Virus record (IMG/VR): IMGVR_UViG_3300020045_016408 | Span: 1-37,108 of that record | Direction: 5' to 3' (one strand) | DNA length: 37,108 nucleotides | Source of the DNA: a virus | Lineage: Duplodnaviria; Caudoviricetes | In this document: positions 22,888 through 35,635 of the stretch, one piece after another | Position numbering within the stretch: position 1 is the stretch's first letter | Layout: each line of letters begins with the position of its first letter | Made by a program: the position numbers and the translations under genes | The notes under the pieces: generated by a model | The model's database searches: none | The model's input: the letters and a program-made list of their open reading frames with translations, nothing else | What the model was told of the DNA's origin: nothing

Positions 22888-24486
22888 TTACTTCTTAGTT
22901 TTCTTATCATCTTCCTTCCGCGGTTCATTCACGATCGCTACCTCGGTACAAAGCACGAGCCCTGCGATTGAGATTGCACTTTGGAGAGCTGTGCGGACGA
23001 CCTTTGTTGGATCAATAATACCCGCAGCAATCATATCATTTTGGTACGTCATCTGACGAGCGTCGAACCCATGTTTTTCCCCTCGGACCACCTCTTCAAC
23101 AACCACGTCTGGCACCCCGTTTGCGTTCTTCACAATCTGGCGCAGAGGTTCCGTGCAGGCGTCATAGACCATCTGTTGTCCCATGACCGGGCATCGTTCA
23201 AAAGGTCGCGCAGCGATGAGTGCGGTCCCGCCACCTGGAACAATCCCTTCCTCAATCGCTGCGCGAGTTGCCTGGATCGCGTCCTCGAGTCGATGATACT
23301 TCTCCTTCATTGCGATCTCTGTTTCAGCCCCGACCTTTAGGATTCCAATCCCGCCTTTCAGGGAAGCGATGCGTCCTTGTAGGCGTTCTTTGTCTGCGGG
23401 CCATGTTACCTTTTCAAGCTGGAGCTCGATCTCCCGGGCCCGCTCCGCGATCTTCTCTTCACTCCCTCCGCCTGAAACAATCGTCGTGTGTTCTGAAGTA
23501 GACGTAATACGTCCTGCGTGACCGACGACGGCGGACGTCGCTTGCTCGAGTTTGAGCCCCGCTTCCTCACTGATCAAGGTCGCCCCTGTGAGGATAGCGA
23601 TATCTTCCAGCTTCTCCTTTTTTCTGTCACCCATTTCAGGTGCCTTGATACAAAGCGCTCGGAGATTCCCTTTACTCCCGTTCAGAATAAAGGTTCCAAG
23701 AACATCCGAAGAGAAGTCGTCAGCAATGATCACGACATCTCGCTTCCCTGTCTCCTTCACAATACTCTCAATTAAAGGAAGGATCTTGTGGATAACGTTC
23801 AAAGGCTCCTCGATTACGACAACAGGAACGTCTAGGAGTTCCGAAACCATCCTCTCCGGATCCGTGACAAACTGTGGCGCGGTGTAGCCGCGGTTGAATC
23901 GCATGCCGGGGACGATCTCAACTTCTACTTCGGCGGAGTTCCCCTTCTCAAGTACAAGGATCCCTGCGTGCCCCACCTTCCCATACGCGTCAGCAACGAT
24001 ACGACCCAGCCCTTCGTCATTGGCAGAGATGCTCGCGATGCGAAACAGATCTTCTTCCGTTCCGACCGGTTGAGATAACTCCTTCAGCTCTTCGGCGATG
24101 TACTCATACGCCTGGTCCATCTCTGCACGGAGGGTCTGTGGGTCGTAACCCATCAACAGTAATTTGCGTCCTTCATGAATGAGCTTCTGTGCCAGGACCG
24201 TCGAGGTGGTGGTTCCATCACCCACGACATCAACAGTCTTCGAAGCGACAGAACGGATGAGCTTTGCGCCCATCTGCTCGAGAGCGTCGGACAGCTCGAT
24301 CGACCGTGCGACCGTGACCCCATCTTTTGTAATCACGTCGTCGCCGAATGGGCGCTCGATAAGCACGAGACGACCTCGTGGACCGAGGGTTACTTTGACG
24401 GCGTCAGCTACCTTATCGATCCCTCGGATAATTCCTGATCGTGCCTCTTCGGAAAAATGGACAAGCTTCGGTTCGAGAGCTGGCAT
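22888..24486 (-). CDS. groEL: group I chaperonin GroEL (532 aa)
   Basis: VTLGPRGR, ITKDGVTVAR, GDGTTT, GMRFNRGY, RLEDAIQATRAAIEEGIVPGGG, GIIDPTKVVRTAL; no GGM tail. Confidence 0.97.
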   Translation of the reverse strand: MPALEPKLVHFSEEARSGIIRGIDKVADAVKVTLGPRGRLVLIERPFGDDVITKDGVTVARSIELSDALEQMGAKLIRSVASKTVDVVGDGTTTSTVLAQKLIHEGRKLLLMGYDPQTLRAEMDQAYEYIAEELKELSQPVGTEEDLFRIASISANDEGLGRIVADAYGKVGHAGILVLEKGNSAEVEVEIVPGMRFNRGYTAPQFVTDPERMVSELLDVPVVVIEEPLNVIHKILPLIESIVKETGKRDVVIIADDFSSDVLGTFILNGSKGNLRALCIKAPEMGDRKKEKLEDIAILTGATLISEEAGLKLEQATSAVVGHAGRITSTSEHTTIVSGGGSEEKIAERAREIELQLEKVTWPADKERLQGRIASLKGGIGILKVGAETEIAMKEKYHRLEDAIQATRAAIEEGIVPGGGTALIAARPFERCPVMGQQMVYDACTEPLRQIVKNANGVPDVVVEEVVRGEKHGFDARQMTYQNDMIAAGIIDPTKVVRTALQSAISIAGLVLCTEVAIVNEPRKEDDKKTKK

Positions 24487-24489
24487 AGT

Positions 24490-24696
24490 TTAAAGAAAGG
24501 TTACCACCGCATTACTCTCTTCGTCGTCGTAAATAAGCCAATGCTTCCCAGAGGCTTCATCAAGTCCGATCGAATCGGGTCGTCTAGGCGCGTTAAGAAA
24601 AATGTGTGTCACTGTCGCTTCGATTTCTTTTTTCCTAAATAGAAATCGGACGACATCCCCCCTGGCAGCGGCTCTGATTTTTTCCCCGATCGTCAT
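24490..24696 (-). CDS. small protein upstream of groEL, possibly divergent GroES-like (68 aa)
   Basis: Ends 3 nt before the groEL start. GDVVRF...GKHWLIYDDEESNAVV loosely resembles the C-terminal half of GroES. The ORF is likely; the family is uncertain. Confidence 0.5.
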   Translation of the reverse strand: MTIGEKIRAAARGDVVRFLFRKKEIEATVTHIFLNAPRRPDSIGLDEASGKHWLIYDDEESNAVVTFL

Positions 24697-24764
24697 ATAT
24701 GATACCATGATCGTTACACCTGTCGCTTTATTTTTTCCACAACGTGGAAGAGAGACAGGTACGA

Positions 24765-24804
24765 GAGGGTCTGTTGGTTATGTACTGACAGGCTTCTTTT
24801 GTTT
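24765..24804 (+). terminator. terminator-like hairpin on the strand opposite to the local genes
   Basis: GGGTCTGTTGGT (24767-24778) pairs with ACTGACAGGCTT (24784-24795) using five G-U pairs that form only on the + strand, then CTTTTGTTT. Confidence 0.45.
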
Positions 24805-25265
24805 GGAACCATGGCTCCGGCTCCGAAGAGAGTGTGATGGCTGTGCCTGAAGCACTGCTTGTCAGATGGGGGAATTGAACCCTATCCATTTACCTGACCC
24901 TTCACGGCCATGCTGACTCATGCCGCTGACAGCCAGCACCATCACACCCTCAAAGAAACCACCCATTGAATGAGCCGTTAAGATAATCCCTCCGGAGAAA
25001 GACCACCTGGCTTTCGCCAACCCTTCAATGGGATAGTTCCTGGATGACAGATATCGGTGGTACTGAATCACCGGGAGCAGTATTACCCGCTCCGAACCAT
25101 ACACGCCCTTGCCGCGCTTATCTAGAAAGCGAAGGAGGAATTATGTATGGGTCGGGCAGTATTACCCGCTCCGATCTCGAATACATCAGCTCAGGATTAA
25201 AGATGGTTGTGAGCTAACCACCAGACCGTTAATGTATCCGAGATCGGAAAGGACAATCACTCCTC
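24800..25265 (-). ncRNA. candidate large structured non-coding RNA (ends approximate)
   Basis: About 600-nt gap in an otherwise tightly packed operon. Helices 25248-25232/25186-25170, 25155-25143/25104-25092, 25040-25024/24970-24955 and 24951-24939/24840-24828, GAAA and C(UCCG)G tetraloops, a T-loop and a pseudoknot. G-U pairs favour the - strand. Confidence 0.75.
25077..25174. repeat. exact 19-nt direct repeat GCAGTATTACCCGCTCCGA (25077-25095 and 25156-25174)
   Basis: Read directly. On the - strand each copy forms a GCGG-GUAAUA-CUGC hairpin. Confidence 0.9.
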
Positions 25266-25309
25266 TACCCTCCACACGCAGCGTACAAAAGCATGGCTAA
25301 AGGCGCATA

Positions 25310-25426
25310 TCATTTGTTCTTTAGAGCTTCATAGCAATCAAAACATACACTCTCTCCTTTGGTAATATATTCTGCCGGTCGACCACAACTGATACACCGA
25401 ATGAACGGCAACGGTGAAGAAGGCAT
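25310..25426 (-). CDS. small CxxC-CxxC zinc-finger protein (38 aa)
   Basis: MPSSPLPFIRCISCGRPAEYITKGESVCFDCYEALKNK; TAA-T-ATG coupling. Confidence 0.6.
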   Translation of the reverse strand: MPSSPLPFIRCISCGRPAEYITKGESVCFDCYEALKNK

Positions 25427-27484: not shown

Positions 27485-28477
27485 TTATTTAAGATTGTAA
27501 GCAAACTCTTTTGCCGCTGTCCATGAGCCGAAGTGATACCTGTAACTCGCTGCTGCGGGAAGGAGCTTCCGACGACAGTCAGAGGTCGAGGCTTCCCGTC
27601 CGTGGTTCAGCTTGAACTCAAGGAGCGCGTTTATGAGCATCTCTTCCGAGTATCGTTTATTCTTTTGCTGGACCTTAATCGCCACCTCGCCGTTGGTTGC
27701 CTGGAAGACAACATCGGTACGGTTGATCTTTGGTTTCTTTCCATCACAAAACGTCAGGGCGTTCAAAAGTGCGCGTGGCATTTCGGTTTTCACCTTCGGC
27801 AGCCGTCCGTTCTTGATCCAAAACTCGCGGTAGAACTTTACCGCGCTCTCGTGATTCCATTTCCAGGTCGGGTGATTTATGTTTTCCCCAGACTTGCGAA
27901 ACGGGATCCCGGCACGCTCACAGCACGCCTTCAATCCATTCTTCCCGTAGACCGCGAGGATGGTGTCGTAGAAGGTGATCTCGCTTGTGCTCGGTGTGCG
28001 TCCGAGCTTGTCGTGGAGTGCTTTGAGTCGTGCGGCGAGCTGATCGGGGCAGGTGCCGCGCTCATTCATGTTCTCCATGGTCCGCTTCTTGAGTGTTGCG
28101 CGGATCTTTTCCCGAGTACGCGAGCTGTGACTTCTAGGTGATCTAAGATTTGCTTTTCGCGCTTCCAGTCCGTTCGCAATCAGCTTGGCGCGGAACTTCT
28201 CTCCGATGAGCGCGGTCGTCTGTCGCAGCCCGGTCTTCTCCTTGTACGCCGAAGCGGTCATCGCGTGTTCACGACGCAGGTGATATCCGAGCGCTTCATG
28301 CCAGGTGCCGCACAGGTGACACTGGACCTGATCGGTCTTCCCATCGAAGACAAGCACGCCTTTGAAGCCGAAGCCGCCTTCGTATTTCATAAAGGGCTCC
28401 TTGACGCGGTACAGAAGGGCATACCCGGATGGAGCGTCTTCGTATTCGAGGACTTTTTTCTCTTCGATGGGAGCCAT
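27485..28477 (-). CDS. DNA-binding protein with MucR/Ros-like zinc finger and homing-endonuclease-associated repeats (330 aa)
   Basis: VQCHLCGTWHEALGYHLRREHAMTASAYKEKTGL; repeats LKALHDKLGRTPS, FWIKNGRLPK and YSEEMLINALLEF...HGREAS...YRYHFGSWTAAKEFA. Start set at 28477. Confidence 0.75.
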   Translation of the reverse strand: MAPIEEKKVLEYEDAPSGYALLYRVKEPFMKYEGGFGFKGVLVFDGKTDQVQCHLCGTWHEALGYHLRREHAMTASAYKEKTGLRQTTALIGEKFRAKLIANGLEARKANLRSPRSHSSRTREKIRATLKKRTMENMNERGTCPDQLAARLKALHDKLGRTPSTSEITFYDTILAVYGKNGLKACCERAGIPFRKSGENINHPTWKWNHESAVKFYREFWIKNGRLPKVKTEMPRALLNALTFCDGKKPKINRTDVVFQATNGEVAIKVQQKNKRYSEEMLINALLEFKLNHGREASTSDCRRKLLPAAASYRYHFGSWTAAKEFAYNLK

Positions 28478-28502
28478 AGAGATCATTAAAGAGACATAGA
28501 AT

Positions 28503-28775
28503 TTATTTCTCTTCTTTAATAGGAGGAGCTTCAGAGAAATTTGTTTTAAACACAATGCCGTGGAGGAGAAGGACCCGTTCGAGACAGTAATTAAGCGCAA
28601 AGATCACGTCCCGCGCAGATGCAGGTTTACCTGAAAGCTCCGTCATGAAGTCCGAGAACTCTTTTACAGGTTCCTTTAGCTTTGCGTGTGTCGTTGTGTA
28701 GAGATAGTTCATTCCTAAAGCAAACCCGATAACCCCAGACAGAGCCGCAATGAGAAGGGCAAGAATGAATTCCAT
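28503..28775 (-). CDS. membrane-anchored hypothetical protein (90 aa)
   Basis: N-terminal TM FILALLIAALSGVIGFALG. Confidence 0.7.
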   Translation of the reverse strand: MEFILALLIAALSGVIGFALGMNYLYTTTHAKLKEPVKEFSDFMTELSGKPASARDVIFALNYCLERVLLLHGIVFKTNFSEAPPIKEEK

Positions 28776-35283: not shown

Positions 35284-35320
35284 AAAAACAGAGACAAAAA
35301 TAACGCCTGTTCAAAAGAGT

Positions 35321-35349
35321 TTGACGGCGTCCGGTATCTCTGTTAAGAT
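35321..35349 (+). promoter_or_regulatory. sigma70-type promoter (rightward)
   Basis: TTGACG, 17-nt spacer ending TGT, TAAGAT; embedded in an inverted repeat (35321-35360). Confidence 0.55.
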
Positions 35350-35376
35350 ACCACCGTCAATTTGTTTTCCAAAGAC

Positions 35377-35406
35377 ACAATAACGCCGTCTGGCACGAGC
35401 TGTCAA
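35377..35406 (-). promoter_or_regulatory. sigma70-type promoter (leftward, towards Prim-Pol)
   Basis: TTGACA (35406-35401), 18-nt spacer, TATTGT (35382-35377). Confidence 0.55.
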
Positions 35407-35424
35407 ACGGCGTTTTTGTTTGAG

Positions 35425-35635
35425 TTATCCCCAGGCCATGGGCTCTCCGTGGGCTGGTTTTTTGAGGGGGCCCACGACTTGAGGAGGATGGTCTAAAATT
35501 TGGCTAGGTTGCGTTGTGGGCTCTTTTTGTGGGCTTAGGACTTAGGGAGCCCAGCCCACGACGAACAAGGAACCTCTTGTGGGGGGGGGGGCCATAGTAG
35601 CGGACGCTACGCTGCTACTATGGCGCCACCCCCGC
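35425..35635. repeat. origin-like region: GTGGGC/GCCCAC repeats, G11 run and 13-bp palindrome
   Basis: GTGGGC or GCCCAC near 35449, 35470, 35516, 35529 and 35554; G11 at 35581-35591; GCCATAGTAGCGG-N8-CTGCTACTATGGC at 35591-35624; adjacent to Prim-Pol. Confidence 0.55.

Follow-up and report, generated by a model that had tools for sequence, protein, structure and literature searches.

The question raised by this locus is whether the long gap that precedes the chaperonin genes of a phage carries a functional RNA. The gap measures 613 nt on the minus strand, from a stop at 25310 to a TATG start at 24696, and the preliminary description proposed it as the site of a large, multi-domain structured RNA. 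The window, i.e. the whole stretch of DNA that was analysed, is an entire virus record of 37,108 bases, estimated to be 78% complete. Within the gap we delimit a candidate structured non-coding RNA of about 470 nt at 24795-25262 (minus strand; hereafter the element), distinguished by its folding rank and by having no match in Rfam, with ends that are defined by folding only.

The phage and its chaperonin operon

The source phage is small (about 47 kb) and podovirus-like, and comes from an uncultured family. Its capsid protein has no match among 50,697 GenBank phage records; used as bait in IMG/VR, the same protein recovers 48 loci, in which near-complete relatives are 41-47 kb long. The closest capsid relative (L026, 84%) stops short of the element region, and carries a terminase and a P22-like portal 5' of where the window begins. 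Between these two genes (L026:1836-2102) lies an 88-aa gene that is GroES-like by eye, with no Pfam match at E<=0.1; no groES was seen adjoining groEL in the window itself.

Plus-strand structural genes extend to 22430. On the minus strand, an early operon runs from 35283 and encodes a prim-pol, an AAA helicase, an exonuclease, a helicase and many small genes, its last genes being a 68-aa gene (24490-24696), groEL (22888-24486; 532 aa, assigned by protein family match) and a 165-aa gene. The start context TATG is found at 25 of the 27 genes checked, often as TGATATG or TAATATG coupled to the preceding stop, and a Shine-Dalgarno-like word at only six of the 27; we infer that the host of this phage translates without Shine-Dalgarno sites. 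GroEL has three relatives at 63-64% identity (ENA, Logan), the other matches listed being at 50% or below, and only four of 36 capsid-related records encode a groEL, at 27-40% identity; the element occurs in none of these four. A search with the 165-aa protein returned only itself. The 68-aa gene, directly downstream of the element and starting at the TATG at 24696, belongs to no family, and searching with its product returned itself and two marginal matches. Its viral look-alikes are all unnamed (0.90-0.91), its weak neighbours are small beta-barrel families, and its predicted fold is poor (pLDDT 57); that it is an RNA-binding partner of the element is possible but unsupported.

Several other features were seen outside the element. 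A minus-strand protein at 27485-28600 carries a ROS/MucR-like domain and HNH-associated repeats. The region 35300-35620, between divergent genes, contains nested palindromes (two TTGACG-led arms) and several hairpins, and likely represents divergent promoters or an origin. On the plus strand, a G-U-rich hairpin with a U-rich tail (24767-24805), at chance level in our scan, could stop plus-strand read-through from the late operon.

Folding and modular organisation of the element

The region was described as folding almost throughout on the minus strand, and comparison with shuffled sequences bears this out. For 24700-25310, z is -8.1 on the minus strand and -4.1 on the plus strand (20 shuffles); for 24795-25262 the values are -7.26 and -4.31, respectively (100 shuffles). 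Among 78 non-overlapping 470-nt windows of the genome (6 shuffles per window, pair span limit of 150), the element ranks first, with an energy below the shuffle mean by -54 (minus) and -38 (plus) kcal/mol, and -28 for the next-best window; 35300-35620 comes second in this rank. With 150-nt tiles, which cut through domains, the element is not singled out (best value -4.8, 10th in the list), and in a crude count of ungapped helices of at least 10 bp it is not first, that place going to 35300-35620. The four long helices reported earlier were found base by base at their given positions, and the reported bias of G-U pairs towards the minus strand also holds: pairs with a probability over 0.8 include 23 G-U of 132 on the minus strand, versus 8 of 121 on the plus strand.

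No convincing open reading frame had been noticed in the gap, and none emerged here. The only in-gap frames with a TATG context are of three codons (MRL) and five codons (MVRSG). An 80-aa ORF (24862-25104) begins at GTG outside this context and has no homologue by search and no PHROG or Pfam family. Its exact sequence is absent from a collection of 15 billion proteins, which does hold that of the downstream 68-aa gene; six other candidate ORFs of the eight queried are also absent, including a likely real one of 99 aa. A TTG-initiated frame of 19 codons, two of them Trp (25256-25197), was rejected, as it too lies outside a TATG context.

The element is modular, with two long hairpins that have arm sequences in common and an exact 19-nt tag. 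Module 1 (25170-25248) is a 17-bp helix with one G-U (20 bp with flanking G-U pairs) that closes a 45-nt insert; the helix, 25248-25232 with 25186-25170, has a mean pair probability of 0.98-1.0. The insert holds a candidate H-type pseudoknot (25188-25222), in which a 7-bp stem (25222-25216 with 25208-25202) is joined by pairing of loop bases 25215-25210 with 25193-25188, giving 13 bp in total. This is equalled by 17 of 400 shuffles of the loop, and the case for a pseudoknot in module 1 is weak. Module 2 (25092-25155) is a 12-bp helix (25155-25143 with 25104-25092) with one G-U and one C-U mismatch, and its inner hairpin (25131-25115) presents a self-complementary UCUAGA loop (25126-25121). In their 5' arms, both module helices have the same first four and last six bases. 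Otherwise, one pair is doubly changed between the modules (U-A to C-G), one goes from U-A to U-G, one is broken and both arms have a 3-bp indel; the inserts, of 45 and 38 nt, are mutually unrelated. A covariance model of module 1 scores module 2 at 18.4 bits, where unrelated motif-bearing loci reach up to 21.2.

No exact direct repeat in the window is longer than the 19-nt sequence at 25174-25156 and 25095-25077. Each copy runs from within the 3' arm of a long helix into a hairpin with a GUAAUA hexaloop, a sequence that has been described as an rRNA hairpin loop (10.1101/354332). The two copies differ in hairpin probability. The hairpin of tag 1 (25156-25174; GCGG-GUAAUA-CUGC) has a probability of 0-0.02, Vienna favouring a competing 6-bp pairing; that of tag 2 (25074-25095; 7-bp stem, 25093-25087 with 25080-25074) has a probability of 0.95-1.0. 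A third, diverged tag (24805-24826) begins with TCGGAGC at 24826 and has a 7-bp stem (24824-24818 with 24811-24805) and a G-N4-A hexaloop, at the end of the element and in the register of tag 2, from which it departs by a double change and, at two further pairs, by G-C to G-U. This end of the element had been drawn with a terminal C(UUCG)G loop, which the predicted fold does not contain: the C of that loop falls on 24828, where the 13-bp helix that closes the final domain has its last base, and loop and helix consequently compete. Both the MFE and the centroid structures have instead the 7-bp hairpin of tag 3 (24824-24805). The general tag pattern, i.e. TCGGAGC followed by a stem with a G-N4-A hexaloop, occurs three times, always within the element, which none of 100 shuffles reached. 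Since the element itself supplied the pattern, this count overstates the case; what really tests the pattern is its third copy.

Between tags 2 and 3 lie two branched domains. The first is a three-way junction (24955-25040), with a closing helix of 16 bp plus a bulge and three G-U pairs (25040-25024 with 24970-24955), a GAAA hairpin, an 11-bp UCCG hairpin with G-U in five of its 11 pairs, and an 11-nt joiner. The second is a multi-way junction (24828-24951) with a closing helix of 13-14 bp (24951-24939 with 24840-24828, 13 bp, one G-U), in which the inner pairing is ambiguous and has several alternatives. Within it, a 3-bp stem with a 7-nt T-loop (24870-24882) is a perfect match to the T-arm motif of tRNA and tmRNA and the sole copy in the window; the motif turns up somewhere in 22 of 100 shuffled windows, which scales to well below 1% for any given 470 nt. 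Several loop complementarities of 6-8 bp are also present in the element, and have no ranking from this single sequence.

The stretch 24795-25262 holds no credible protein gene, is predicted to form three modules tagged by hairpins, and is likely a non-coding, minus-strand RNA. This is indicated by the folding rank, the strand bias of G-U pairs and the RNA-type loops, together with the 80-aa ORF's lack of the usual start context and the differences between internal copies, which keep the structure.

Known RNA families and possible relatives

As anticipated in the preliminary description, the element fits no known family: none of the 4227 families of Rfam 15 reaches its gathering score, and at E<=10 there is only sub-threshold noise from snoRNA and miRNA families. 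The conserved 3' domain model of GOLLD (RF02032) has no match, with no hit at E<=10, under a cut-off that no control genome passed; the ROOL model (RF03087) has none in the Rfam search, a separate search being empty along with its controls; and the OLE model does not reach its gathering score. Pistol, other ribozymes and riboswitches were rejected, there being no Rfam match to them. Rfam and ARAGORN find no tRNA gene in the window, and a tRNA or tmRNA identity was set aside, since only the T-arm is present, there being no ARAGORN gene, cloverleaf, acceptor or CCA end, D-arm, anticodon arm or tag frame. The 13-nt T-arm aligns to positions 349-361 of the tmRNA model at 6.9 bits, against a gathering score of 47. 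An rRNA fragment or mimic was likewise discarded: the alignment scores to E. coli 16S, 23S and 5S rRNA are reached by 13, 49 and 33 of 60 shuffles, respectively, and that to the L11-binding region by three of 60, at an unrelated position. The candidate pseudoknot is an H-type structure of about 35 nt, the size of a ToxI monomer in the ToxI/CptI and phage pseudo-ToxI systems (PMC5086642; PMC3475682). However, the ToxI model (RF02519) gives no score, and the candidate is single, locked within the 17-bp helix, and not part of a tandem array of 34-36-nt repeats.

In its size, non-coding character and many predicted helices and junctions, the element as modelled resembles the large ornate phage RNAs. 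Like GOLLD, ROOL and OLE it is phage-borne, several hundred nucleotides long and of no known function, with many helices and junctions and a GNRA loop, and its candidate pseudoknot and palindromic loop resemble features of these RNAs (PMC12286853). In OLE and GOLLD, palindromic loops make symmetric kissing contacts, and in large ornate phage RNAs palindromic kissing loops and A-minor contacts build oligomers (PMC12286853). However, the element is smaller, at about 470 nt compared with 577-833 nt for the solved examples (PMC12286853), and no tRNA genes lie nearby, whereas GOLLD and ROOL often occur beside tRNA islands. Its organisation also differs, being that of beads on a string with a repeated internal tag and without a supported long-range closure.

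Searches of collections of viral, metagenome, genome, phage and plasmid sequences gave no homologue of the element, which is thus a singleton candidate RNA. With blastn, phages gave two chance matches of 36 nt and plasmids none, and a single-sequence model had no match in 38 capsid-related phage records. The tag motif occurs at 24 loci in viral contigs, with no likeness past the motif, and at 21 loci in GTDB genomes, none of which has the modules; many of the latter are in frame with an IGAGNT peptide, as judged from their flanks by eye. A double tag in metagenomes gave 17 loci, all simple or coding repeats with no nhmmer match. A loose double motif in two of 64 parts of the viral contigs gave 139 loci, again with no nhmmer match, of which two have both hairpins and are coding-like. 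The T-arm pattern search gave no match. The search for homologues through groEL neighbourhoods, suggested at the outset, yielded no locus in viral or genome contigs (the best GroEL match in INPHARED being at 44%), and the helicase as bait gave none either. Three single-sequence models had no match with default filters in 79 loci (941,419 bases), and with filters off in 13 of these loci the best score was 17.1 bits, to generic hairpins. Single-sequence models are weak, and distant relatives may therefore remain.

The tag motif was found in no paper and does not occur in the searched part of the PMC10690425 supplement, the rest of which may hold it. Similarly, no description of an element-like RNA was found in print, in a search that took in the smaller part of the PMC10690425 alignments, which derive from the same kind of data.

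Structured gaps recur in capsid-related phages. In one of these (G011; L093:545-935), a structured gap of about 390 nt (z -8.08) lies upstream of a distant groEL operon and behind a promoter-like sequence. It has no Rfam match, is unrelated to the element, and is not kept in the relative G006 apart from a downstream hairpin, and such regions can thus be labile. In another (G013; L101:1460-2120), a non-coding region with repeated and inverted motifs of 10-12 nt and very long hairpins is origin-like.

Possible functions of the element

Our tentative reading, to which we give somewhat less than an even chance, is that the element is a non-coding RNA from the end of the early operon that works in trans to bind protein, as a multivalent scaffold or decoy. 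Its transcription would depend on early-operon read-through; the sequence upstream shows no promoter consensus, and a candidate separate promoter, located between the element and the groEL operon, is at chance level. With this candidate promoter, and with groEL in only four of 36 capsid-related records, none of which has the element, the co-expression with GroEL proposed in the preliminary description is conjectural. The long end helices would release and protect the RNA, and the repeated tag may be the site recognised by a protein or nuclease, given that it alone is unchanged between copies that carry different inserts. Tertiary contacts or dimerisation, of the kind seen in OLE, ROOL and GOLLD, may be the role of the T-loop arm and the UCUAGA loop.

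An unlikely alternative is that the element acts in cis on the early messenger, by processing, stabilising or switching, and so controls the amount of message that extends into the 68-aa gene, groEL and the 165-aa gene. The element lies directly upstream of the groEL operon on the same strand, and it has two mutually exclusive folds; in G011, another structured gap is found upstream of a distant groEL operon. When the leader 25310-25263 is included, a long-range pairing of 25310-25299 with 25110-25099 (25099-25310, minus strand) displaces module 2, with a probability of 0.95 and an energy 7.5 kcal/mol better than that of the fold with module 2 enforced. The second helix of the preliminary description (25155-25143 with 25104-25092) is present in the element itself, and is displaced if the transcript includes 25310-25263. 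The 5' arm of the long-range fold carries the three-codon MRL frame (25308-25297) in the usual TATG coupling context, so that ribosomes coupled into this frame would open the fold and allow module 2 to form. The long fold also contains a further duplex, some 25 bp in length, that joins 25791-25764 to 25270-25245 on the minus strand (-36.4 kcal/mol). It encloses two small genes and could be a processing stem, but among 4838 background windows it reaches no more than about the top 1%. A separate hairpin was seen at 25775-25745 within a 57-aa gene. Against a cis role, there is no minus-strand terminator past the element except a chance-level GAAA hairpin, the next start is about 110 nt past the last hairpin, and a phage with a Shine-Dalgarno motif at only six of 27 genes has no such site to hide. 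A switch would also leave the three tags and the T-arm unexplained.

Less likely again is a role at the level of DNA, in which hairpins on one exposed strand would signal priming or an origin to the prim-pol and helicase, with the 19-nt repeats as iterons, or would be targeted by recombination or nucleases. In its favour, the element has long imperfect inverted repeats and a pair of exact direct repeats, the phage encodes a prim-pol and helicases, both strands fold (plus-strand z -4.3), and single-stranded DNA tolerates G-T pairs. However, loops of the UNCG and GNRA types are characteristic of RNA, as are a T-arm and multi-way junctions, and the strands differ by 35 kcal/mol as RNA but by only 4.5 with DNA parameters, under which they are nearly equal (-84.0 versus -79.5). 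In addition, the palindromic region at 35300-35620, between divergent genes, is more origin-like than the element.

That there is no functional RNA here at all is improbable. The region would then be a decayed gene or the 80-aa ORF a coding one, with hairpins left by recent local duplications, which would agree with the singleton status of the element and with a SERVIL peptide that opens a reading frame in both modules. The codon score of the ORF (-0.07 per codon) lies between an off-frame null (-0.30) and the training genes (+0.28), and is above that of some small genes that look real. However, the 19-nt repeat is identical between copies at all third codon positions, the first place among 78 windows is held by a wide margin and with four independent long helices, and the ORF has neither the TATG start nor a homologue.

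The element resembles the UG27 arrays in layout only, both being phage-borne, with tandem units that have a central hairpin, short common motifs, variable content and a pseudoknot in some units (10.64898/2026.09.22.753630). That it is itself such an array of template or guide RNAs, with a constant scaffold and variable inserts, served by an enzyme from the missing fifth of this 78% complete record or from the host, is very doubtful: no reverse transcriptase (PF00078) occurs in the window or in 23 family records (eight near-complete), no recombinase, Tas, Cas or accessory gene among the 40 ORFs scanned, the units, two clear ones with a third tag, are of 79-93 nt and not 135-167 (10.64898/2026.09.22.753630), and the inserts have complements elsewhere in the window of at most 11 nt.

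A further reading, which we regard as a long shot, is a display array, in which the constant tag hairpins would mark cut or binding sites between exchangeable folded inserts and so release small RNA decoys. The inserts on display would be a pseudoknot, a self-dimerising hairpin and a tRNA-elbow-like junction, and the decoys would be aimed at RNA-binding defence or translation proteins of the host; the phage family concerned is one in which gene starts lack Shine-Dalgarno sites. To our knowledge, large phage RNAs have no known function, and most of the known ones lie in tRNA islands of larger phages. The element is short enough for direct synthesis, probing and imaging, and in its internal repeat has something rare for a singleton, a pointer to the bases that most likely form a functional handle. 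Should the tags prove to be cut or binding sites, the element would represent a new way of packing several RNA modules in one gene.
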